Positions 10,330 through 64,000 of a stretch of 64,000 nucleotides of DNA are shown one piece after another. Each line of letters begins with the position of its first letter. The first letter of the stretch is position 1. The notes under the pieces are model-generated. The model made no database searches and was not told where the DNA came from. It saw nothing but the letters and a program-made list of their open reading frames with translations. The position numbers and the translations under genes are program-made. The stretch is taken from assembly GCA_965249715.1 (NCBI GenBank), contig CBDFMP010000047.1:128362-192361 (forward strand), in the 5' to 3' direction. The stretch comes from Spirochaetota bacterium. Its GTDB lineage: Bacteria > Spirochaetota > UBA12135 > COTS27.

Positions 10330-11586
10330 TCAAGCTAGGCTCAATGCCTGTTCCAAATCGCTCAGCAGATCGGAACTTTCTTCAATGCCAATGGAGAGCC
10401 GAATAAGTGTTTCACTAATGCCCAGCTCTTTTCTGCCCTTTATTCCCGCTTCAAAGAAGATGGTGGGGGCAACAGGTATAGCCAGCGAACGCGTATCGCC
10501 TAAGTGAGTGGCGCGGCGGAAAACTTTTAAGGCGTTCATCAGCTTGTACAAATTGTACTGCGGTTTCAATTCAAATGACAGGATGCCGCCGCCGCGTGTG
10601 TACCATTGCAACATACGCGCGTGCTGGGGATGCTGTGGCAGACTGGGATGATGAACGGCGGCTACTTTCGAATGTTTGTTTAAATAAGCAGCAATGCTGT
10701 CACTGCTATCGCAAATACGCTGCAAGCGTAAAGCCATTGTTTCCATGCCCAGCGCGATAGTGGCAGCGGCTTGCGGGGAAAGCACACTTCCCATATCGCG
10801 CATGCCGCGTTTACGCAACTGTGTGAAGACAGGTATAGCCGTGTCGCGATATTGCGAGAGAATGCCGGGATCCTGCTCCCAAGCATAATTGCCCAGCTCT
10901 GTAAGCGCCCCGCCTAAGGCGGCTGCATGTCCGCCAATGTACTTGCTGAGCGAATGGTGGGCAAAGGTAAAACCCAATGTCTTTGGTTTGAAATAATACG
11001 GAGTGGTGATGGTGTTATCGGCAATGGTGATGAGCTTCGCTGCTTCCGCTAACTCTTGGATGCCCGCCAGATCGGGAATGATGGTCAGTGGGTTGGCGAT
11101 GGTTTCAAAAAAGAGTATGCGCGTCTCTTTGCGCAGTTTGGCGGCAATATTCGCTTTTGTACTCATATCGACCAGCTCAACATCAATCCCCACGCGCCTG
11201 AGTGTTTGAAAGAGATTGACCGTATTGCCAAAAATGTGTTTGCTCGCCAGTATATGCTCGCCCTTTCTCAGCAAAACAAGCAAGGGCAGTAAAATAGCCG
11301 CCATACCCGTTGCCATGCAGAGCGTCGCTGTACCCTCTTCTAAGAGAGTCAAACGTTTTTCTAAGCTACTGACGGTAGGCGAATTTGAGCGCGCATAGGT
11401 ATAAGTTTGGCTGCGCCCCTGAAACGCGTCAATGAGCTCTTCTACTTTTGAATAGGTGTAGGTTACAGAAGGTTGTATTGGAGTGTGGACTCCGCCATCA
11501 GTGCTGCTCTGCGCGGGGGGACTGTGCAGAATTTGTGTTGTAAAACCCTGATGGATGACGTTTGTTTGGGAAGCTGTTGGTTTCAT
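10330..11586 (-). CDS. PLP-dependent trans-sulfuration family enzyme (O-acetyl/O-succinylhomoserine sulfhydrylase-like)
   Basis: 418 aa with Cys/Met-metabolism PLP family features: YTYARSNSPTV, GMAAI and the PLP-lysine context HSLSKYIGGH. It sits in a cluster with ahcY and metK. Confidence 0.75.
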   Translation of the reverse strand: MKPTASQTNVIHQGFTTQILHSPPAQSSTDGGVHTPIQPSVTYTYSKVEELIDAFQGRSQTYTYARSNSPTVSSLEKRLTLLEEGTATLCMATGMAAILLPLLVLLRKGEHILASKHIFGNTVNLFQTLRRVGIDVELVDMSTKANIAAKLRKETRILFFETIANPLTIIPDLAGIQELAEAAKLITIADNTITTPYYFKPKTLGFTFAHHSLSKYIGGHAAALGGALTELGNYAWEQDPGILSQYRDTAIPVFTQLRKRGMRDMGSVLSPQAAATIALGMETMALRLQRICDSSDSIAAYLNKHSKVAAVHHPSLPQHPQHARMLQWYTRGGGILSFELKPQYNLYKLMNALKVFRRATHLGDTRSLAIPVAPTIFFEAGIKGRKELGISETLIRLSIGIEESSDLLSDLEQALSLA

Positions 11587-14494: not shown

Positions 14495-14536
14495 TGACTT
14501 ATTAAGAAATTATTGTGACTTATTAAGAAATTATTG
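14495..14536. repeat. Perfect 21-bp tandem duplication (tgacttattaagaaattattg x2) just upstream of icd
   Basis: Copies lie at 14495-14515 and 14516-14536. The second ends about 22 nt before the likely icd ATG at 14559. Confidence 0.9.
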
Positions 14537-14558: not shown

Positions 14559-15785
14559 ATGAAAAAAATTAATGTTACAAACCCTGTTGTAGAAATAGAT
14601 GGCGATGAAATGACACGCGTCATTTGGCAACTGATCAAAGAAAAATTTATTCATCCGTACTTGGATATTGAGCTGAAGTATTACGACCTGGGAATACTAA
14701 GCAGGGATAAGACTGATGATCAGATTACGATTGATGCTGCTGAGGCCATCAAACAATACAAAGTAGGCATCAAGTGTGCGACCATCACTCCCGATGAGAC
14801 ACGTGTGCAGGAATTTTCACTCAAACGCATGTATCGTTCGCCTAATGGCACCATTAGAAATATCCTCGGCGGAACGGTTTTTCGTGAGCCTATTATGATT
14901 AATAATGTTCCACGGCTTGTCTCGGGGTGGAAAAAACCGATTTGTATCGGTCGGCATGCTTTTGGCGATCAATATCGTGCAACCGATATTTTGGTGGAGA
15001 AGGGCGGTAAACTCAAACTAAGTGTTGAAACAGCTGATGGACAGCTGCAAACACACGATGTTTACACGTTCACGGATAGCGGCGGCATTGCTTTGGCTAT
15101 GTATAATACCGATGTATCCATTCGCGCATTTGCGCGCGCTTCATTTAATCAAGCCTTGGCAAAAGGCTGGCCGCTTTATCTTTCCACAAAAAACACCATC
15201 CTCAAAGCTTACGATGGCCGTTTTAAAGATATTTTTGCCGAAGTGTACGAGCAAGAATTTAAAACTAAAATGGAAGCACAAGGCCTCAGTTATGAACATC
15301 GCCTCATTGATGACATGGTGGCAGCCTGCTTAAAGTGGGAAGGCGGATTTGTCTGGGCTTGTAAAAATTACGATGGTGACGTACAGTCGGACACGGTGGC
15401 ACAGGGGTTCGGCTCATTGGGGCTGATGACATCCACATTGATCACTCCAGAAGGCGATATCATGGAGAGCGAGGCTGCCCATGGTACCGTCACACGCCAT
15501 TATCGCAATCACCAACAAGGAAAAATGACTTCTACCAACTCCATTGCTTCCATTTTTGCATGGACGCGTGGGCTTGCCTTTCGTGGTAAATTGGACAATA
15601 ACGCGGCATTACAGACATTCGCTGAAAAATTGGAACAAGCCTGTATTCAAACTGTAGAGGCAGGCAAAATGACGAAAGATTTAGCATTGCTTATCCATGG
15701 TGCAGAGCTTAAGTCGGAGCACTATCTTAGCACGGAGGCTTACATGGACGCCGTATTGAGCACTTTTAAAGGGCTGCGCCAATGA
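14559..15785 (+). CDS. icd: NADP-dependent isocitrate dehydrogenase, eukaryote-like homodimeric type
   Basis: The ORF track starts at 14538 (TTG). The ATG at 14559 gives [20 protein letters not shown], the canonical N-terminus of IDH1/IDP-type enzymes. It also carries [29 protein letters not shown] and GTVTRHYR. Confidence 0.9.
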
Positions 15786-16420
15786 GCTTAGCGGTGTACG
15801 GTCGCACTGAAAATAAGAGTTTTATGCGCGGCATTTACCTGCTTGTTTTGATAGTTTTAGTCAGTTTACAAGCTTGCGGCAGCGGCAATGATGAACGCTA
15901 TCGTTATTATACCACCACTAACTTAGAACCTACGTCGCTGGAGCTTTCAGTAGCAGACAGCCTGCTCAGTGGGCTAACCATGCCCGGCAAGCTGGAAGCA
16001 TTGCAATGGGAACTGCCGCAGGAATGGAAAACTGTTGAGGCAAGCGGTGTGCGTTTTGCCAACTTTCGCTCTGTTGCCACTAGCGTTGAAACAACGATAG
16101 TGAGTTTTCCGGGTGATGTGGGCACATTGCAAGCTAATGTTGAGCGGTGGCTTAGGCAGATGGAAGCACAGGTATCGCCAACTCTGCTTAATCAGTACCT
16201 GACGCAGCTTATGCCTGCCAGTAATGATCAGGGAATGCGATATGTGAAAATAGATTTAATGGAATTTGCCGCGCAACCGGGCAGTACAGCCATTATTGCA
16301 GTAATCCTCAGGATTGGTGGGCAGAGTGTTTTTATCAAAATGCAAGGCACGCAGCGGCTCTTGACGCGCGAACGCGCTAACTTTGATGTTTTGCTGGCAT
16401 CATTGCAGCTGAGCGTTTAG
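15782..16420 (+). CDS. Hypothetical lipoprotein
   Basis: 212 aa with a 4-bp ATGA overlap onto the icd stop. A signal peptide with lipobox ([15 protein letters not shown]) is present. No recognisable domain. Its last ~36 nt begin the 187-bp repeat array. Confidence 0.55.
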
Positions 16421-17690
16421 GTTGTGCATCCGCGGCAGCTCAACATGTTATTAATGCTTGTTTGCGTTTGGTACGCTGCAAGGTTTTTTTAAACAGGGAA
16501 GACTACGTCTATTGCGGGCAATGAGCTCGTAAACTTGATCACGCAGGCTTGGTTGAATGATGCCTGCTTTTGATGTTTTGCTTGGATCATTGCGGCTGAG
16601 CGTTTAGGTCGTGCATCCGCGGCAGCTCAACATGTTACTAATGTTTGTTTGCGTTTGGCACATTGCAAGGTTTTTTTAAACAGGGAAGACTACGTCTATT
16701 GCGGGCAATGAGCTCGTAAACTTGATCACGCAGACTTGGATGAATGATGCCTGCTTTTGATGTTTTGCTTGGATCATTGCGGCTGAGCGTTTAGGTCGTG
16801 CATCCGCGGCAGCTCAACATGTTATTAATGCTTGTTTGCGTTTGGTACGTTGCAAGTATTTTTTAAACAGGGAAGACTACGTCTATTGCGGGCAATGAGC
16901 TCGTAAACTTGATCGCGCAGGCTTGGAGGCATGATGCCTGCTTTTGATGTTTTGCTTGGATCATTGCGGCTGAGCGTTTAGGTTGTGCATCCGCGGCAGC
17001 TCAACATGTTACTAATGCTTGTTTGCGTTTGGTACGTTGCAAGTGTTTTTTAAACAGGGAAGACTACGTCTATTACGGGCAATGAGCTCGTAAACTTGAT
17101 CGCACAGGCTTGGCTGAATGATGCCTGCTTTTGATGTTTTGCTGGCATCATTGCAGCTGAGCGTTTAGGTTGTGCATCCGCGGCAGCTCAACATGTTATT
17201 AATGCTTGTTTGCGTTTGGTACGCTGCAAGGTTTTTTTAAACAGGGAAGACTACGTCTATTGCGGGCAATGATATCGTAAACTTGATCACGCAGGCTTGG
17301 CTGAATGATGCCTGCTTTTGATGTTTTGCTTGGATCATTGCGGCTGAGCGTTTAGGTTGTGCATCCGCGGCAGCTCAACATGTTACTAATGTTTGTTTGC
17401 GTTTGGCACATTGCAAGGTTTTTTTAAACGGGAAAGACTACGTCTATTGCGGGCAATGAGCTCGTAAACTTGATCACGCAGACTTGGATGAATGATGCCT
17501 GCTTTTGATGTTTTGCTTGCATCATTGCGGCTGAGCGTTTAGGTCGTGCATCCGCGGCAGCTCAACATGTTACTAATACTTGTTTGCGTTTGGCACATTG
17601 CAAGGTTTTTTTAAACGGGAAAGACTACGTCTATTGCGGGCAATGATATCGTAAACTTGATCACGCAGGCTTGAAGGAATGATGCCTGCT
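16385..17690. repeat. Tandem array, 7 copies of a 187-bp unit
   Basis: The unit marker gatgttttgct recurs at 16385, 16572, 16759, 16946, 17133, 17320 and 17507, an exact 187-bp period. Each unit contains the 3' end of the + strand lipoprotein gene and the 3' end of the - strand DCC gene. The copies differ by a few mosaic substitutions. Confidence 0.95.
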
Positions 17691-17983
17691 GCACGCGCAA
17701 AGATCTTCCACCATCCGCCCAGCTCGGTCAGGGCAGCTAAGACCGCTGTACTTTTGGTACGCAGCAGTGAATGTTTACGAAAGACAAGTGTTTGCAATTC
17801 CTGCGTTGGCAGTCCCAAGCTTTTCAGTACTTCGTGACCTTCGGGACTTTGCAATGCCGCATAACTAAGCCGTCTTTTAAGATCACGTTTGCTGAAAAAC
17901 TGGACACTGCTTTGACAAAGCCCGCAATCACTGTCGAAAAAAAGGACAGCAGCTTGAGTGGTTTTACTGGAACGGCGGGTCAT
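17573..17983 (-). CDS. Thiol-disulfide oxidoreductase DCC family (DUF393)
   Basis: 136 aa with N-terminal VLFFDSDCGLCQSSVQFF, the DxxCxxC DCC motif. Its 3' ~115 nt form the last repeat unit. Confidence 0.7.
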   Translation of the reverse strand: MTRRSSKTTQAAVLFFDSDCGLCQSSVQFFSKRDLKRRLSYAALQSPEGHEVLKSLGLPTQELQTLVFRKHSLLRTKSTAVLAALTELGGWWKIFARAAGIIPSSLRDQVYDIIARNRRSLSRLKKPCNVPNANKY

Positions 17984-36036: not shown

Positions 36037-37005
36037 ATGCAGCATTCACATATTGCTGAACTAAGCGGGTTACGCGTTTTGCTAACTAAATTAGCGTCAG
36101 GTGTACTCATAGGAGCACCGCAGTCATTGAAAATGGCGCTGGAACAGTATCCTAAGCTGCTGGGAAAAATTTATAAACCATTGGCAGAGGCGCTGGTACA
36201 TGCAGTCTTAGCGGCTAGGCAGCGTGGGCAGAATTCTCAGGAAGGCAAAATAGCGCCAGCTCCGCTATTGGTGGGCATTAGCGGGGCACAAGGAACAGGC
36301 AAATCTGTGCTTGCAACCATACTGGCTTATTTGCTGAGTACTGGAGCGGGACTACGGACGGCTGTTTTAACATTGGATGATTTTTATCTTAAGAAAGCAG
36401 ATCGCAACAGGCTTGCAGCCACATTGCATCCGCTTTTTCAGACGCGCGGCGTGCCGGGAACACATGATACGGCACTGCTCATGGAAGTTTGGGGCGCACT
36501 CAAACGCGGAAGCCCGCAGCTGTTGGAAGTGCCGATCTTTGCTAAGGGCTTGGATGAGCGCTTAGCGGTCACGCGTAAAATTGAGCTCCCAGTCGAGCTT
36601 GTTTTATTGGAAGGTTGGTGTGTGGGGGCACGTGCGCTCAGTACAGCAGAGCTCACAAAACCCATTAATTCACTGGAAAACAGTGAAGATCGCCTCGGCA
36701 TTTGGCGGCGCACTGTCAATGAGCGCCTTGCTACTCAGTACACGCCCTTGTTCAGTCAGCTGCAATATTTGATCGCCATGCTTCCGCCACGTGCTGACTT
36801 TAATCTGATTTTTCAATATCGCATGGAGCAGGAGCAGTGGCTGCCTGCTAAACAGCGGTTATCACGTAAGACGATGTATCGGTTTATAGCGCATTTTGAA
36901 CGCATTACGCGGCAGCTCTTCAATGACCTGCCCAGACAGGCAGATGCCATTGTCCAGCTGGGAGCCACGCGCGCGGATGCGGAGCTTGTACTAAAGACGG
37001 ACTGA
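36037..37005 (+). CDS. P-loop kinase of the D-glycerate 3-kinase (GLYK/uridine-kinase-like) family
   Basis: 322 aa with Walker A VGISGAQGTGKSVLA, LTLDDFYLKKADR and TRGVPGTHDTALL, resembling plant/cyanobacterial-type glycerate 3-kinases. Confidence 0.6.
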   Translation: MQHSHIAELSGLRVLLTKLASGVLIGAPQSLKMALEQYPKLLGKIYKPLAEALVHAVLAARQRGQNSQEGKIAPAPLLVGISGAQGTGKSVLATILAYLLSTGAGLRTAVLTLDDFYLKKADRNRLAATLHPLFQTRGVPGTHDTALLMEVWGALKRGSPQLLEVPIFAKGLDERLAVTRKIELPVELVLLEGWCVGARALSTAELTKPINSLENSEDRLGIWRRTVNERLATQYTPLFSQLQYLIAMLPPRADFNLIFQYRMEQEQWLPAKQRLSRKTMYRFIAHFERITRQLFNDLPRQADAIVQLGATRADAELVLKTD

Positions 37006-37564
37006 ATGGAAGACAGTTATTTCACTCAAACGCGGAAGCCCGCAGCTGTTGGAAGTGCCGATCTTTGCTAAGGGCTTGGATGAGCGCTTAGCGGTCACGC
37101 GTAAAATTGAGCTCCCAGTCGAGCTTGTTTTATTGGAAGGTTGGTGTGTGGGGGCACGTGCGCTCAGTACAGCAGAGCTCACAAAACCCATTAATTCACT
37201 GGAAAACAGTGAAGATCGCCTCGGCATTTGGCGGCGCACTGTCAATGAGCGCCTTGCTACTCAGTACACGCCCTTGTTCAGTCAGCTGCAATATTTGATC
37301 GCCATGCTTCCGCCACGTGCTGACTTTAAGCAAATTTTTCAATATCGCATGGAGCAGGAGCAGGAGCAGGAGCAGTGGCTGCCTGCTAAACAGCGGTTAT
37401 CACGTAAGACGATGTATCGGTTTATAGCGCATTTTGAACGCATTACGCGGCAGCTCTTCAATGACCTGCCCAGACAGGCAGATGCCATTGTCCAGCTGGG
37501 AGCCACGCGCGCGGATGCGGAGCTTGTACTAAAGACGGACTGAATGGAAGACAGTTATTTCACT
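36497..37564. repeat. Tandem duplication (526 bp + 538 bp) of the 3' half of the kinase gene plus the convergent gene junction
   Basis: Copy 1 is 36497-37022 and copy 2 is 37023-37560. A 4-bp cact lies at both junctions and again at 37561-37564. The copies differ by (GAGCAG)2 versus (GAGCAG)4 and by aatctg versus aagcaa. Confidence 0.95.
37049..37543 (+). pseudogene. Duplicated 3' fragment of the kinase gene
   Basis: This 164-aa ORF is nearly identical to residues ~164-322 of the 36037..37005 product. It carries an EQEQ insertion and lacks the P-loop half. Confidence 0.8.
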
Positions 37565-38163
37565 AAATTATTGATTTTACCGACAGCCGAAAAACATAAA
37601 ACAGCACCCATAAAGTAGCTGATCGTGATGCTTCCCAGTGTTGGGAAGACCACAAAAACCAATCCTATCATCACCAGCAGCAGCGATGAGATTTTTTGCC
37701 ACTGGACGCGCGATAACCGTGCTGGTTTGGCATGCGGACGTTCGTGATCAATCACTCCAGTCGCTTCAGTTGCGGGCGGTTTAAACATACCGACAGCAGA
37801 AAGAAATAACAGGCGAATGACAGCCGCAAAGATGATCAGCAGACCAATGATAATTGAGAAGAGCTTGAGTGATAATAGGGCATTTAAAACTAAAAACAGC
37901 CCTAACAATCCGTCGAATATAGCCGCAAGCGTGTAACCGATATTGCCTTTTCTGAGCCCCTGTACCAAACTGACAATGCTGATGAGCAAGAAGAAGAAAC
38001 CGACGAGCGATATCAAACTTTTTATGCTGCCGACAGGATTGATGAATAAAATGCCGCTGAGTAGGAGAAGAATAATAATCTGCAGCAGTTCCCAGGTGAT
38101 GTCCCAGCTTTTAGTTAAACGCGTACTACGTGATGAGGGAGTTTGTGGTGTTGACATAAACAA
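37555..38163 (-). CDS. Small polytopic membrane protein (HdeD/DUF308-like)
   Basis: 202 aa with 5-6 TM helices of repetitive GxLLxxxG character. No catalytic motif. Confidence 0.4.
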   Translation of the reverse strand: MFMSTPQTPSSRSTRLTKSWDITWELLQIIILLLLSGILFINPVGSIKSLISLVGFFFLLISIVSLVQGLRKGNIGYTLAAIFDGLLGLFLVLNALLSLKLFSIIIGLLIIFAAVIRLLFLSAVGMFKPPATEATGVIDHERPHAKPARLSRVQWQKISSLLLVMIGLVFVVFPTLGSITISYFMGAVLCFSAVGKINNLVK

Positions 38164-41344: not shown

Positions 41345-42775
41345 CATGACTGGACCAGTACTTGGGGTGTTTTAAAGTGTGCGCAAATAACGAATGACAA
41401 GGGCTGCTGCTGCAGCCACTTCATTGTAAAGATGCAGCGCTTGTTGGTGGCGTAACTGTTCGAATGTTTGTCGATTTTCTATGCCGGGCGCGGAGAAATC
41501 AATATCGCTGATTTTTGCAGCTCCATAATAGCTTGTTGGAGACGCTGCCTGAGCCGCTGGGGTGTTTGTTGTGTTGGCTGCTGTGATGTTGGTGGGTGTA
41601 ACAACGGCTGCGAGTAAGCTTAGCGGCATTTTGGGCTGCTGCCCGATAGCGGTCAATGCGTTCAATCACGGTTTTTGTCGCTTGCACACCATGACTGGAC
41701 CAGTACTTGGGGTGTTTTAAAGTGTGCGCAAATAACGAATGACAAGGGCTGCTGCTGCAGCCACTTCATTGTAAAGATGCAGCGCTTGTTGGTGGCGCAA
41801 CTGTTCGGATGTTTGCTGATTTTCTATGCCGGGCGCGGAGAAATCAATATCGCTAATTTTTGCAGCTCCATAATAGCTTGTTGGAGACGCCGCCTGAGCC
41901 GCTGGGGTGTTTTAGAGTGTGCGCAAATAACGAATGACAAGGGCTGCTGCTGCAGCCACTTCATTGTAAAGGTGCAGCGCTTGTTGGTGGCGCAACTGTT
42001 CGAATGTTTGTCGATTTTCTGTGCCGGGCGCGGAGAAATCAATATCGCTGATTTGATGAAGTGTCTTTTGCATGACGATTGCCACGAATTCTTTTTCAAT
42101 CGCTGGTTTTTGCAGCTCCATAATAGCTTGTTGGAGACGCTGCCTGAGCCGCTGGGGTGTTTTAGAGTGTGCGCAAATAACGAATGACAAGGGCTGCTGC
42201 TGCAGCCACTTCATTGTAAAGATGCAGCGCTTGTTGGTGGCGTAACTGTTCGGATGTTTGCTGATTTTCTGTGACGGGCGCGGAGAAATCAATATCGCTG
42301 ATTTGATGAAGTGTCTTTTGCATGACGATTGCTACGAATTCTTTTTCAATCGCTGGTTTTTGCAGCTCCATAATAGCTTGTTGGAGACGCTGCCTGAGCT
42401 GACGGGGTGTTTTAGAGTGTGCGCAAATAACGAATGACAAGGGCTGCAGCTGCAGCCACTTCATTGTAAAGGTGCAGCGCTTGTTGGTGGCGCAACTGTT
42501 CGGATGTTTGCTGATTTTCTGTGACGGGCGCGGAGAAATCAATATCGCTGATTTGATGAAGTGTCTTTTGCATGACGATTGCCACGAATTCTTTTTCAAT
42601 CGCTGGTTTTTGCAGCTCCATAATAGCTTGTTGGAGACGCTGCCTGAGCTGACGGGGTGTTTGTTGTGCTGGCTGCTGTGATGCTGGTGGGTGTAACAGG
42701 CTGCGAGTAAGCTTAGCGGCATTTTGGGCTGCTGCCCGATAGCGTTCAATGCGTTCAATCACGGTTTTTGTCGCT
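41345..42775. repeat. Nested tandem repeats of the 3' end of the maf-like gene (five copies of the stop-codon-bearing cassette)
   Basis: The terminal cassette (encoding ...LHLYNEVAAAAALVIRYLRTL-stop) recurs, with stops at 41372, 41717, 41912, 42162 and 42412. The spacings are 345, 195, 250 and 250 bp. The copies differ by presence or absence of sub-modules. Confidence 0.95.
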
Positions 42776-44343
42776 TGTTTAAACTTCTCCATGCGCTGTG
42801 GAAATTCTGCTGCCGCGCTGCCGTGACTCTTGTGATAACTTGCAACGGTGTCCTGCAGCCGCTTTCTGAACGCTGATTTATCGATGTTTGTTTGTGCATG
42901 CTTTTTTATGAATGCCGCTAATGGCAGATAGGGAATTCCACTCAAGGGTTGTGCGCGGAGTGAGTTATGATAAAGTGGGAAACTGAGTCCGCTGCTGTTC
43001 TCTTCAAACCAGCGTTTATAAAGCTGCATGGCAGCATCTGTGTAAGCTTGTTTGCCGGCACGTGTGTGCACGGGAACAACGTCCTTGCCGCGCATTATTG
43101 CGAAGATGCGCGTTTCAAAGTTATCGAGACGTTTGATTGAGGCAAACCAATGTTCTTCATGAAAAGCGCCGCGCAGGTGATAACGTTCGCGTGAGTATGC
43201 CAGATCAATGCCCGCCAATGCCACAGCACAGGGCGCGCTGTGTTTTGCTAGCTCAAAGGCAACGGTGGCAACCGAGCCCCCCACTTTCAATATTCCCTTG
43301 CTGCCAAAGAATCCGCATAAGTAGGCATAGTACGGAGAAAAGTTATCAAACATGAAACACAGCGGAAATTTTTTCAGCGCGTGTTTGCTGATGGATGGTT
43401 CGGCTACAAGGGCTGTTTGTGCGGCTGCCTGCGGAGCGGCAGTTTCCAAGTATTTTGCATTTTTCTTCTGTGGATCAATAGAAACTACAATGTCTGCATG
43501 AATGCCGTACTGCTGGAGCGTGGTGTAAGCCGTATCGACGGCGATGATGATAACGTTATTCTGGTGCTGTTTGAGGATTGAAAAATCATCTTCCAAGGAT
43601 GGTGCTGCTCCTGTAATGACCAGCGGCAATGTCTGCAGCAGTTCTGTAAGCTGTGTACTGGGAACGGCGTCTATAATGAAAGCTGTATTTTTGATGAGGT
43701 TCCGCAGCCATAATTGTTCAAACCGCGCAAAGGTAGCGCGATTGATCGCTTTTTCTTCTTGCACAATGCTGACAGCTGCCTGTGTTTGCTGATAAAATGT
43801 ACTTGCAAGCTGCACTTCACGGGTGTTGGCATAAAAACGAATACGTTTAGTGGAATGCTGTTTGAAGATATTGGTGAGTTCCTGTCTAAACTTGCTGTCA
43901 GCGGCATTGGGTGGGGGCAGGGGTGCTGACGCCGCTGCTGCTTGCAGCAGCGGCGTTTGCCAGAAGCTGTAGAATAAGGGTGGTGACGCTTTTATGCGGG
44001 CACTTATGGTTTTAGCCTTTAGCTGTTGAAGACTGAATTTGAGTAATTCTTCAGTTTGACAGATCAGCAGGATAGCTGTTTTGGGGTAGTGGATGAAAGC
44101 TTCGCGGATAAGAGCAATATTGCCGGCACCCAGGATCATAATGAGTGTGGGCAGCTCTGTTGCTGTTTTTAATCCTGTTTCAGCGGGGGATAATCTGCTT
44201 AAAATGCGCGCGGCTTCTGCTTGCGGTGAGTATTTACTGGATAAATAAATGTTTTTGCCCGTCAGCTCTTTGCAGTAAATAACCGCTGTGGGATCGTCTG
44301 CCAGCTGAGCAGGCTGTGTATGGTAGGGACCTTTAAAAGACAC
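42412..44343 (-). CDS. Motility accessory factor (Maf)-like protein, DUF115/MptE-like domain (putative flagellin glycosyltransferase)
   Basis: 643 aa with a GTG start. The N-terminal YLSSKYSPQAEAARIL and central LPLVITGAAPSLEDD...IIIAVDTAYTTLQQYGIHADIVVSIDPQ match the Maf/DUF115 core (GxGPSL...D...DP). Confidence 0.65.
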   Translation of the reverse strand: MSFKGPYHTQPAQLADDPTAVIYCKELTGKNIYLSSKYSPQAEAARILSRLSPAETGLKTATELPTLIMILGAGNIALIREAFIHYPKTAILLICQTEELLKFSLQQLKAKTISARIKASPPLFYSFWQTPLLQAAAASAPLPPPNAADSKFRQELTNIFKQHSTKRIRFYANTREVQLASTFYQQTQAAVSIVQEEKAINRATFARFEQLWLRNLIKNTAFIIDAVPSTQLTELLQTLPLVITGAAPSLEDDFSILKQHQNNVIIIAVDTAYTTLQQYGIHADIVVSIDPQKKNAKYLETAAPQAAAQTALVAEPSISKHALKKFPLCFMFDNFSPYYAYLCGFFGSKGILKVGGSVATVAFELAKHSAPCAVALAGIDLAYSRERYHLRGAFHEEHWFASIKRLDNFETRIFAIMRGKDVVPVHTRAGKQAYTDAAMQLYKRWFEENSSGLSFPLYHNSLRAQPLSGIPYLPLAAFIKKHAQTNIDKSAFRKRLQDTVASYHKSHGSAAAEFPQRMEKFKQATKTVIERIERYRAAAQNAAKLTRSLLHPPASQQPAQQTPRQLRQRLQQAIMELQKPAIEKEFVAIVMQKTLHQISDIDFSAPVTENQQTSEQLRHQQALHLYNEVAAAAALVIRYLRTL

Positions 44344-49012: not shown

Positions 49013-49539
49013 ATAACAGCTTAACGGGCACTGCCATAAGTTATCAACATCGCTTGCAGCTGCGGGTTTATTACGGTGATACCGATGCAGGCGGTGTGGT
49101 TTATTATGCCACCTACGGACATTATTTTGAACGCGGCAGAACAGAACTGCTGCGCGCGCTGGATTGCTCCCCCCATGTACTGATGAAAAACTACCACTTG
49201 CTTTTGCCTGTCATAAGCTTAAATGTGCGTTATCATCGTCCCGCCTATTATGAAGATCAGCTCACCTTGGTCACGGAGCTCAACATGCCTACGCCGCTGC
49301 GTTTGCAATATGATTATAAACTTTTCAGAAGTAAGGCTCCCTTGGTGGCAGCAGGCAGCAGCCCGTCGGAGCGCCCGGCAGCTTTAACAAATTCAGCAGC
49401 TTGGGAATTAATTACCAGTGGAAGGACTGTCAATGTGCCCGTTACCGCACAAACAATGCGCCCGCGCCGATTGCCTGCAGAATTGATGACACAGCTGCGG
49501 CAAGCCGCCACGCGTTATTGCGGTAGTTTTCATCGGTGA
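49009..49539 (+). CDS. YbgC/4HBT-family acyl-CoA thioesterase (3' end remodelled by duplication)
   Basis: 176 aa. RVYYGDTDAGGVVYYATYGHYFERGRTELLR is the hotdog thioesterase motif. The last 7 codons (YCGSFHR) derive from antisense sequence of the downstream gene. An ancestral-looking end (...LMTQLQQAATR-stop) survives at 49741-49790. Confidence 0.75.
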   Translation: MNNSLTGTAISYQHRLQLRVYYGDTDAGGVVYYATYGHYFERGRTELLRALDCSPHVLMKNYHLLLPVISLNVRYHRPAYYEDQLTLVTELNMPTPLRLQYDYKLFRSKAPLVAAGSSPSERPAALTNSAAWELITSGRTVNVPVTAQTMRPRRLPAELMTQLRQAATRYCGSFHR

Positions 49540-50205
49540 TCAAGTTGTCTATTGAAATAAAGAGACTCATGCTTTGCAGCTCTTGTTTGAGTAGTTGAAT
49601 AGTATAACGCAGGTCTAAGGTGTTGCGCTTGCGACTGAGCTATTCCGTGACGGTTTGCGCGGCACTGCCATCCATGACAGGGTGAAGTTTGTCGGCATCA
49701 AGAAATGTGTACTGCAATGTGTGGGCAAAAGTAAAAAACGGATTGCCTACAGAATTGATGACACAGCTGCAGCAAGCCGCCACGCGTTAATCTCAGTTGG
49801 TGCTACTTGCAATACAAACTTAGCTTAGAATACATATTCTAAACCCAGTTTCAGTAACCGCAATGTATCGCTCAGGTAAGGGATATTGCGGTAGTTTTCA
49901 TCGGTGATCAAGTTGTCTATTGAAATAAAGAGACTTATGCTTTGCAGCTCTTGTTTGAGTAGTTGAATAGTATAACGCAGGTCTAAGGCGTTACGCTCGC
50001 GACTAATATATTCCGTGACAGTTTGTGCGGCACTGTCATCCAGGACAGCAAAATAGTCGCGGTAACGATAGCGGTAGGTTACCGTCAAGTGTGAGTGTAA
50101 AATATTTTCTTTCAGCTTAAATTCTGTTGTCATTGCCAGGACAGGGTGAAGTTTGTCAGCATCAAGAAATGTGTACTGCAATGTGTGGGCAAATGTAAAA
50201 AACGG
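49469..50205. repeat. Tandem duplication across the thioesterase/OMP convergent junction, with two internal deletions in copy 1
   Basis: 49469-49516 matches 49741-49789. 49516-49672 matches 49885-50043. 49673-49741 matches 50138-50205. Copy 1 lacks the equivalents of 49790-49884 and 50044-50137. Confidence 0.9.
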
Positions 50206-62018: not shown

Positions 62019-63338
62019 GTGTTAAGAAAGTATCGTATTACAGGGGGGCGTCCGCTTAATGGGAAAGTGCAGATTGCGGGCTCCAAGAACGCAGCTCTGC
62101 CCATTTTTGCGGCAACGCTTTTAACCGATGAAGAAGTGATCCTTCGGAATGTGCCGCGCTTGCGTGATACGGATACAATGGCGCGTTTACTGGAAAACCT
62201 GGGCAAAGCAGTGACGCGGACAGCTGATACGGTGGTCATCAAACCCCAGCGCAAACCAGGAACTGCGCCCATCCGTGCAACTTATGAAATTGTCAAGCAG
62301 ATGCGTGCGTCTATTTCTGTCCTTGGGCCTTTATTAGCACGTCATGGACATGTGGAAGTGTCGCTGCCGGGCGGCTGTGTTTTTGGCCCGCGCCCGGTGG
62401 ATCTGCATTTACGCGGGCTGGCACAATTAGGCGCAGATTTAACACTGCGCCATGGCGATATTATTGCAAGTCCGCACGCTAAGCGCTTATGTGGAGGGAA
62501 AGTTGAACTTTTGGGGCCATTTGGAACATCGGTCTTAGCGACAGATAATGTTTTGAGTGCTGCTGTCCTTGCGGACGGAGCTAGTGTATTAATGCATGCG
62601 GCGCGTGAACCTGAGACCTTGGATCTGATTGGATTTTTGCGCACCTTGGGTGCTAAAATTGATACAACTGCCTTAGCCAAACATGGGCGGTTAACAATAG
62701 AAGGGGTGGATAAATTGGGCGGCGGCGAGTACAGGATTATTCCCGATCGCATAGAAGCGGGCAGCTGGCTTTGTTTTATAGGGCTGACGGGCGGCAAGGT
62801 GACGTTGACGGAGCTCAATACTGAGCACTTAACGTTACCGCTGGCGCGGCTGCGCGCCAGCGGTTTTCAGTATGAAGAAACAAAGGCGGCTGACGGTCTG
62901 AGCCAGTTGCAAGTGACGGCACCGCTGCTTGCTGATACAACGCCGCTGGATATTACAACCGGCGCTTACCCGGGATTTCCAACGGATCTGCAGCCGCTGT
63001 TTATGGCGCTTGCTACCGTTTTTCCCGGGCGTTCGCGATTTTGTGAACGCATTTATCCCAATCGTTTCAATCACGCCCCGGAGTTGACGCGCATGGGTGC
63101 ACAAATTACGGTGACCAGGGATTGTGCCGAGGTGACCGGTGTAACAGGATTGGACGGCGCGCGCGTACAGGCTTCGGATCTGCGTGCAGGTGCAGCCTTA
63201 GTAGGGGCTGCGCTTGCTGCTAGCGGGGAGAGCGAGCTTAAACGGATTTATCACATTGAGCGCGGTTATGAGAATTTATTACCCAAATTACGTTCACTAG
63301 GAGCCAACATTGAGGTGTTTGCTGATCCCGTTTTATGA
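62019..63338 (+). CDS. murA: UDP-N-acetylglucosamine 1-carboxyvinyltransferase
   Basis: 439 aa with a GTG start. ITGGRPLNGKVQIAGSKNAALPI, the EPSP-synthase-fold repeat pattern and the C-terminal HIERGYENLLPKLRSLGA are all typical of MurA. Confidence 0.92.
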   Translation: MLRKYRITGGRPLNGKVQIAGSKNAALPIFAATLLTDEEVILRNVPRLRDTDTMARLLENLGKAVTRTADTVVIKPQRKPGTAPIRATYEIVKQMRASISVLGPLLARHGHVEVSLPGGCVFGPRPVDLHLRGLAQLGADLTLRHGDIIASPHAKRLCGGKVELLGPFGTSVLATDNVLSAAVLADGASVLMHAAREPETLDLIGFLRTLGAKIDTTALAKHGRLTIEGVDKLGGGEYRIIPDRIEAGSWLCFIGLTGGKVTLTELNTEHLTLPLARLRASGFQYEETKAADGLSQLQVTAPLLADTTPLDITTGAYPGFPTDLQPLFMALATVFPGRSRFCERIYPNRFNHAPELTRMGAQITVTRDCAEVTGVTGLDGARVQASDLRAGAALVGAALAASGESELKRIYHIERGYENLLPKLRSLGANIEVFADPVL

Positions 63339-63342
63339 GAGC

Positions 63343-63697
63343 TTAGGCATGAGTTTGTTTCAGCTTTTGAATAAAGTCGCCGAGCGGTTTTAAGTGCTCC
63401 CAGACCGTTTTTTTAAGTGTTGGATCATTGATCAGTTCACGCGGGTGTTCGGTATAAAGAATTTGACTGTTTTCGTACGGCAATAATTGTCCTTGGCTGG
63501 CACTGAAAGCTTTTAAAATACTGCAGGCAAACATTGAGCGCGTCCAGCTGATTGGAGAGCTCTTCAACGGCTGAACATTTGACGGCAGTTGTGATATAAA
63601 CACTGTTGGCGTCGATGCCAAGGGCGCTAATGATTTTTAGCAGTACTTGACCGTCTGCGGTGGTGAACAGCCGCCCTTGCAGTTGATCGCTCCAGTT
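63343..63697 (-). pseudogene. Duplicated, internally deleted 3' fragment of the uracil-DNA glycosylase gene
   Basis: The C-terminal 53 aa of ORF 63343..63621 equal the UDG C-terminus (SQGQLLPYENSQILYTEHPRELINDPTLKKTVWEHL...). Upstream sequence encodes GRLFTTADGQVLLKIISALGIDANSVYITTAVKC in another frame, so it is frameshifted by the deletion. Confidence 0.75.
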
Positions 63698-63726
63698 GGT
63701 GTTTGCTGACCCCGTTTTATGAGAGC

Positions 63727-64000
63727 TTAGGCATGAGTTTGTTTCAGCTTTTGAATAAAGTCGCCGAGCGGTTTTAAGTGCTCCCAGACCGTTTTTTTAA
63801 GTGTTGGATCATTGATCAGTTCACGCGGGTGTTCGGTATAAAGAATTTGACTGTTTTCGTACGGCAATAATTGTCCTTGGCTGGTACTGAAAGCTTTTTT
63901 GCCGCTGAGCAGCCGATAAGTATTTTCACCGAAAGCAATAATAAGCTGAGGTTTGATTAATTTTACTTCGCTATGAAAATACTGCAGACAAACATTGAGC
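63727..64000 (-). CDS. Uracil-DNA glycosylase family 4/5-type, partial (runs off window)
   Basis: My own translation gives ...CLQYFHSEVKLIKPQLIIAFGENTYRLLSGKKAFSTSQGQLLPYENSQILYTEHPRELINDPTLKKTVWEHLKPL...-stop. The layout is UDG family-4-like (LG..A...L ... T.HP..L..P..K...W.DL). Confidence 0.65.
   Translation of the reverse strand, partial: LNVCLQYFHSEVKLIKPQLIIAFGENTYRLLSGKKAFSTSQGQLLPYENSQILYTEHPRELINDPTLKKTVWEHLKPLGDFIQKLKQTHA

Follow-up and report, generated by a model that had tools for sequence, protein, structure and literature searches.

In the genome of a Spirochaetota bacterium (GenBank assembly GCA_965249715.1, contig CBDFMP010000047.1), two convergent genes encoding a putative lipoprotein and a DCC1-like thiol-disulfide oxidoreductase are joined by seven tandem copies of a 187-bp unit that is made of their own 3' ends (positions 16382–17690 of the window, i.e., the whole 64,000-nucleotide stretch that was analyzed). 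We consider this array to be probably (probability about 0.75) a neutral by-product of a genome-wide tendency to short tandem duplications of roughly 170–700 bp. The structure of the array, its gene-end origin, its mosaicism, its near-neutral substitutions, and the genome-wide enrichment of arrays at gene ends with their depletion in gene interiors are observed or computed.

Structure and gene-end origin of the array

Using Tandem Repeats Finder (TRF), positions 16382–17690 were identified as a tandem array with a period of 187 bp (7.0 copies, 94% matches, 0% indels, score 2275), and its span of 1309 bp is exactly 7 × 187. An earlier note on this DNA had described seven tandem copies with an exact 187-bp period, which TRF bears out; the unit starts given there (16385 + 187k) correspond to the TRF register offset by 3 nt. 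Each unit comprises the last 12 codons and the stop codon of the + strand lipoprotein open reading frame (ORF), a 30-nt spacer, and the last 38 codons and the stop codon of the − strand DCC1-like ORF. Full genes are attached to the outermost copies only, as the note had stated, and both peptides that it quoted are exact (YELIARNRRSLPCLKKPCSVPNANKH in U1 and YDIIARNRRSLSRLKKPCNVPNANKY in the expressed U7). The two genes and the parts of the array are:

15782..16420, + strand: putative lipoprotein gene, 212 aa (ORF list; N-terminal hydrophobic stretch ending ...SLQAC), with its last 12 codons and stop codon in U1
16382–16568 (U1), 16569–16755 (U2), 16756–16942 (U3), and 16943–17129 (U4), no strand: tandem array of 7 units, first four units (TRF, unit table)
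17130–17316 (U5), 17317–17503 (U6), and 17504–17690 (U7), no strand: tandem array, remaining units (TRF, unit table)
16421..16450, no strand: 30 nt separating the two stop codons in U1, a spacer that recurs in all units
16569..17503, no strand: inner units U2–U6, joined to neither gene, each with silent copies of both tails
17573..17983, − strand: DCC1-like thiol-disulfide oxidoreductase gene, 136 aa, with its last 38 codons and stop codon in U7

In addition to the tails of the full genes, U1 contains a silent DCC tail and U7 a silent lipoprotein tail. Based on the translations, both frames and both stops are open in 7/7 copies, and the silent DCC tails show 72–85% identity to DCC residues 98–136 (tblastn-type matches). 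The unit has seven matches in its own genome, all at the array locus, and it was not found in 12 relatives. A 25-nt invariant core of the unit was not found in the JGI metagenome contigs, and exact-protein look-ups for the lipoprotein and DCC sequences returned no match. A dispersed repeat or mobile element, such as a repetitive extragenic palindrome (REP), a miniature inverted-repeat transposable element (MITE), or a satellite, was rejected on the basis of this distribution (single locus, 0/12 relatives) and of a 9-bp inverted repeat that is complete at one junction only.

The DCC ORF matches the Pfam family DCC1-like (PF04134; E = 1.1e-23, residues 14–123), with no signal peptide recognized by eye, and its product is a cytoplasmic-type redox family member. 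No Pfam family was found for the 212-aa putative lipoprotein. The closest complete relative (same genus in the taxonomy; a single contig of 2,684,921 bp, ~40% GC) has the locus in the same gene order, i.e., metK, isocitrate dehydrogenase, the lipoprotein facing DCC, ResB-like, and CcsA-like, as judged by ORF order, size, and strand, with orthology checked for the lipoprotein and DCC only. The lipoprotein is 43% identical to the syntenic ORF of the relative, with an alignment that reaches the C-terminal 15 residues, whereas the DCC orthologue is 35% identical, with an alignment that runs through RDQVYDIIARNRRSL...C.VP.A. Because the orthologues of the relative align to both C-termini, the unit originated from gene ends; judging from these alignments, the repeated sequence is genuine gene-end sequence, and the genes have not grown into a pre-existing repeat. 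Together with the content of the unit, these alignments also uphold the earlier description of the unit as the 3' ends of two convergent genes.

The orthologous lipoprotein/DCC convergent junction of the relative has an independent array (46 bp × 5.3; L011 7906–8152), which overlaps the DCC stop codon. Nearly every intergenic spacer in the 16-kb locus of this relative contains short-period tandem repeats. The locus of a same-family relative (G002) stops 314 bp past the DCC stop codon, and hence it is uninformative on the junction.

Tandem arrays across the genome

The genome (2.42 Mb, 49 contigs, 47% GC) yielded 742 TRF rows and 200 non-redundant arrays with a period of at least 100 bp, which comprise 8.96% of the genome. 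Their periods are mostly 170–500 bp, with 2–13 copies. When only the 155 arrays with ≥90% matches are considered, the periods are divided evenly among the residue classes modulo 3. The earlier note did not place the 187-bp array among these ~200 similar ones. Coverage by arrays with a period of at least 100 bp is 9.35% here, compared to ~1.6% in 400 kb sampled of the closest complete relative, and it is 0.85% and 2.3% in two more distant relatives.

For the gene-end test, each array was collapsed to one unit (n = 149), and 400 random placements of same-length segments served as the null. Genes were called crudely, using a codon-usage score and greedy choice (1760 genes, 83% coding), and the known genes around the locus were reproduced. 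The units were distributed as follows:

Inside a gene: 13/149 observed, null 89.9 (standard deviation 5.9)
Spanning one 3' end only: 59/149 observed, null 13.2
Spanning a convergent 3'-3' junction: 12/149 observed, null 1.6
Spanning 5' end(s) only: 8/149 observed, null 15.6
Spanning both 3' and 5' ends: 25/149 observed, null 18.2
Intergenic: 32/149 observed, null 10.3

The period is divisible by 3 in 10/13 of the units inside genes, whereas the other units show no such preference. The bias toward gene ends was unchanged among arrays of at least 95% identity, and when the last copy was kept instead of the first, 57 + 14 units lay across 3' ends (one 3' end only and convergent junctions, respectively) compared to 11 across 5' ends only. 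Since a tandem duplication across a gene end leaves one intact gene, this pattern fits random duplication combined with purifying selection.

Duplications of 5' ends only are found at about half the random expectation and are about seven-fold rarer than those of 3' ends only, an asymmetry that is not explained by the absence of a broken gene alone. The shortage at 5' ends is consistent with a further burden there, since such duplications create additional promoters and truncated N-terminal fragments and split operons.

A further array lies beside mutS. Next to the intact gene (positions 10848–11405 of contig C19, outside the window, match MutS_V), there are two MutS_V fragments with internal stops (C19 9281–10013), which sit in a 296-bp × 2.8 array and are decayed copies of the mutS 3' end.

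Variation, mosaicism, and growth of the array

There are 24 variable columns among the seven units in the TRF register (27 in the register of the earlier note, which counts 3 at the right boundary). In pairwise comparisons, the units are 89–98% identical, with at least 3 substitutions between any two of them. The four-gamete test was failed by 49/136 informative site pairs, i.e., all four allele combinations are present, which supports the earlier view that variants are shuffled mosaically through ongoing unequal exchange or gene conversion. U1/U5 and U2/U6 are each 98.4% identical, whereas adjacent units share 92–96% identity; therefore, in a recent event, two or more units were shifted by four positions. 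Short patches are common to otherwise different units (GATATC in U5 and U7; G..A at columns 114/117 in U6 and U7), and some variants are common to inner copies and expressed end copies (e.g., the YDII codons in U5 and U7, and ASLQL in U1 and U5).

The variable columns are unevenly distributed, with 4/69 in the lipoprotein tail plus spacer (unit columns 1–69) compared to 20/118 in the DCC tail (columns 70–187; Fisher p = 0.04). The 30-nt spacer is the least variable part of the unit (1/30 columns), and only 2 residues of the lipoprotein tail vary from copy to copy. This difference between the two sides may reflect chance, a conversion gradient, or spacer constraint.

No microhomology was found at the array ends (left flank ...GCTAAC/TTTGATG, junction ...CCTGCT/TTTGATG, right end ...CCTGCT/GCACGC), which argues that the first duplication was illegitimate. 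Direct-repeat slippage was rejected as the origin: an imperfect TGATG...TGCTG match near both ends is spaced by 173–174 bp, not 187, and cannot be the breakpoint. In young two-copy arrays elsewhere in the genome, junction homology is 0–19 nt (median ~3). The exact register that the array has retained is, in turn, the mark of homologous unequal exchange. RecA, MutS, and the large subunit of exonuclease VII were found in the genome and in 9 relatives, and with all three of the repair or recombination genes checked being present, loss of a repair gene was rejected as the cause of the duplications.

We infer how the events were ordered, by what mechanism the copies recombined, and that the array lacks a function. 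The 187-bp segment (lipoprotein 3' end, spacer, and DCC 3' end) would have been duplicated once by an illegitimate event. With a segment that reaches across the ends of two facing genes, the left gene would still be completed by the first copy and the right gene by the last, and nothing would be broken. Homologous unequal exchange and short-patch gene conversion, for which RecA is present, may then have produced seven copies with an exact register and shuffled variants, and the U1/U5 and U2/U6 pairs would be traces of a recent event in which more than one unit was moved. The inner copies would be promoterless pseudo-tails that drift near neutrally, and the array may persist because no gene is disrupted.

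Silent tails evolve close to neutrally

The DCC tails contain 6 synonymous and 15 non-synonymous variants, compared to ~23% synonymous expected by chance (p = 0.60), and the chance that 21 distinct variants create no new stop is 0.47. Genome-wide, of 65 silent tails in register, 61 remain intact; premature stops occur in 3, and the original stop has been lost in 2. Variants of the silent copies across the genome (distinct, polarized variants in in-register copies that passed an identity filter) include 41 synonymous and 62 non-synonymous changes (omega ~0.6, kappa ~4.4). Silent copies thus evolve close to neutrally, amino-acid changes are not in excess among them, and promoter-like sites are not overrepresented in the units. 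The earlier note had regarded the promoterless inner copies as alternative C-terminal cassettes, a claim that is not supported in view of the near-neutral substitutions (p = 0.60), the membership of the DCC protein in a redox family, and the lack of a promoter signal in the units.

It is highly improbable that the inner copies form a silent-cassette reservoir, i.e., gene-conversion donors for the C-terminus of DCC and/or the lipoprotein in the manner of vls or tprK. Such a role is suggested by the mosaic variants that are common to the inner copies and both expressed end copies, by the open frames in all silent tails, and by the organism itself, a spirochaete, since silent-cassette systems are known in this group (e.g., Borrelia vls and the donor sites of Treponema tprK). 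However, the substitutions are neutral, with no enrichment of amino-acid change either in the array or genome-wide, nothing marks the DCC1-like protein as a surface antigen, and the lipoprotein tail is near-invariant (2 variable residues). Moreover, arrays of this kind are found at ~70 other ends of unrelated genes, mutS among them, the period is not divisible by 3, and stop codons and a spacer are part of the unit.

Inverted repeats, folding, and terminators

The earlier note had also described a 9-bp inverted repeat that brackets each unit and forms a hairpin across every junction, which might drive slippage. The arms exist, but the left arm GGCATCATT occurs in 2/7 units (U1 and U5) and the right arm AATGATGCC in 6/7, such that the full pair is found at the U4/U5 junction only:

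17117..17152: sole junction (U4/U5) with both 9-bp arms intact, AATGATGCC at 17117 and GGCATCATT at 17144 (pattern positions)

Junction DNA folds no better than shuffled sequences (z-scores −0.4 to −0.9). When the first 30 nt of the unit were compared with the last 30 nt in 143 arrays, the longest inverted match was no longer than in random segments (mean 4.51 compared to 4.56); the 9-mer match of the 187-bp array is the best of the 143, with ~0.4 such cases expected. The hairpin is most likely a chance feature and not a general driver of slippage, and the proposal of a hairpin across every junction was not sustained.

Whole-unit RNA folds are also no better than shuffles (z-scores −1.45 and −0.07), the unit has no Rfam match at E up to 1, and the array contains 2 terminator-like sites compared to 3.8 in shuffles, i.e., no excess. 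A structured RNA or an array of intrinsic terminators was rejected given the missing Rfam match, the lack of a terminator excess, and the weak folds. The same results bear on the idea that the array is a functional spacer, that is, a buffer or terminator zone separating two convergent transcripts, which we find hardly credible. Although conservation within the unit is highest in the spacer and to its left and convergent junctions are the most enriched class of array, neither intrinsic terminators above shuffles, nor an Rfam family, nor a stable fold (z = −1.45 and −0.07) was detected, and most arrays in the genome are not located at convergent junctions.

Evidence for and against a neutral origin

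Several observations weigh against the array being a neutral by-product of random duplication. The lower variability of the lipoprotein tail and spacer could hint at spacer constraint. All seven copies retain both frames and both stops, which is expected by chance about half of the time and is no proof of decay. Genome-wide, the synonymous share among silent copies is slightly above neutral (0.40 compared to 0.295, p = 0.03), an excess for which mutation bias or conversion by the expressed copy may be responsible. Duplication is frequent in this genome, in which MutS, RecA, and exonuclease VII are all present. Convergent junctions are enriched 7.5x, compared to 3.1x for plain intergenic DNA, and pure tolerance explains this convergent excess only if promoter-bearing spacers are less tolerant. 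Lastly, the copy number of seven is known from the assembly alone.

The convergent excess bears on a different explanation, in which the duplication process is aimed at 3' ends, above all at convergent ones, so that the bias reflects where duplications are made and not only where they are tolerated. Such a process, possibly arising from transcription-replication or transcription-transcription conflicts or from stalled forks, is unlikely. It would account for the excess of units across one 3' end only (59 vs. 13.2) and convergent junctions (12 vs. 1.6), for the deficit at 5' ends (8 vs. 15.6), for the over-representation of convergent junctions among the tolerated classes (~12 vs. 6.6, chi-square p ~0.03), and for the independent array at the orthologous junction of the relative. 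Selection gives the same pattern, however, given that 5' duplications add promoters and N-terminal fragments and split operons, whereas convergent spacers have no promoters. The array shared at this junction is also unsurprising in a 16-kb locus where nearly all intergenic spacers of the relative bear repeats, and the units have no terminator or hairpin signal.

A related scenario, in which active duplication at the ends of transcription units, especially convergent 3'-3' ends, is coupled to recombination of silent tails back into the expressed genes, is quite unlikely. It would be compatible with the variants that inner and end copies share mosaically and with convergent junctions being more enriched than plain intergenic DNA, and if it were true, C-terminal sequence would be renewed from a local store.

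With respect to copy number, it is very unlikely that the array is an assembly artefact, with a true copy number that is lower or higher, or an array mis-built from repeat reads or strain variants. Ten contig ends fall in arrays, and the genome is an 85% complete, 49-contig draft. On the other hand, the array is internal to a 229-kb contig and has no Ns, its units are all distinct (at least 3 substitutions) and in exact register without indels, and eight internal arrays of >900 bp at ≥98% identity were resolved, suggesting long reads. An artefact is also not expected to produce ~200 similar arrays with a coherent gene-end bias.

Other repeats in the window

A second array is located at window positions 41849–42662 (250 bp × 3.3, 96% matches), at the 3' end of a − strand 643-aa ORF (42412–44343), and it yields overlapping false ORFs that share a ...AAAAALVIRYLRTL tail. 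Three further tandem duplications occur at 36497–37567 (spacing 526–538 bp; two blocks 100% identical, i.e., very young), 49516–50205 (spacing 368–464 bp; 93–96% identity), and 63314–63898 (spacing 384 bp; 99% identity), the last of which runs towards the end of the window. A perfect 21-bp × 2 direct repeat is present at 14495–14536, just upstream of the start of the isocitrate dehydrogenase ORF (14538).

Significance

The structural description in the earlier note is correct, and its functional interpretation is mostly unsupported. As a single case, the array is ordinary in its context, being one of ~200 gene-boundary tandem duplications in the genome of a host-associated spirochaete. Its value lies in the genome-level picture: long-period copies make up 9% of the genome, gene interiors are depleted about seven-fold, the surviving internal cases are nearly all in frame, and 3' ends outnumber 5' ends by about seven to one among the arrays. 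If the neutral reading holds, these arrays are a clean natural record of selection filtering random tandem duplications. In practical terms, assemblies break at such arrays, and their annotation yields spurious small ORFs and 'partial gene' calls.

Comparison with known systems

The array resembles vls and tprK in that promoterless partial gene copies adjoin an expressed gene and share variants mosaically. In contrast to vls, tprK, and pilS, the expressed genes here encode a DCC1-like protein and a lipoprotein with a near-invariant tail, with no sign of variable surface antigens. Unlike in vls and tprK, there is no excess of amino-acid change (6 synonymous vs. 15 non-synonymous variants, p = 0.60; genome-wide omega ~0.6), the unit includes the stop codons and intergenic DNA of two genes, and the same kind of structure is found at dozens of unrelated gene ends.

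The closest complete relative shares the gene order and also has an array at the lipoprotein/DCC junction (46 bp × 5.3). Its repeats are, however, mostly of short period (10–40 bp), the 187-bp unit is absent, and the orthologues are only 35–43% identical. The genome paper on the starfish spirochaete COTS27 attributes assembly gaps to tandem repeats.

Among known genomes, that of Ehrlichia ruminantium offers the closest parallel to these arrays. The genome of this species, as described by Collins et al. in 2005 (PNAS 102:838), reportedly contains ~8.5% repeats, including tandem repeats with truncated and duplicated genes, and repeats are said to accompany most of its 32 pseudogenes, which are truncated pieces of genes; its large tandem repeats are also the subject of Frutos et al. 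(2006, J Bacteriol 188:2533). Like the spirochaete studied here, E. ruminantium is host-restricted. Several percent of its genome consists of long-period tandem repeats that occupy non-coding stretches and gene boundaries, with truncated fragments (summarized in PMC10710844), and its drafts have ~29% GC (PMC7343930). It is an alphaproteobacterium with ~29% GC, whereas the genome studied here belongs to a spirochaete with 47% GC. Variable copy number is a defining observation in E. ruminantium, and the copy number here comes from one assembly only. The likeness lies in the many long-period arrays (200 arrays, 8.96% of 2.42 Mb) and in the avoidance of gene interiors with fragments at gene boundaries (13 units inside genes vs. 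89.9, and 59 + 12 at 3' ends vs. 14.8). Two of the three features that define the E. ruminantium kind are thus found here, which extends this pattern to an unrelated symbiont lineage.

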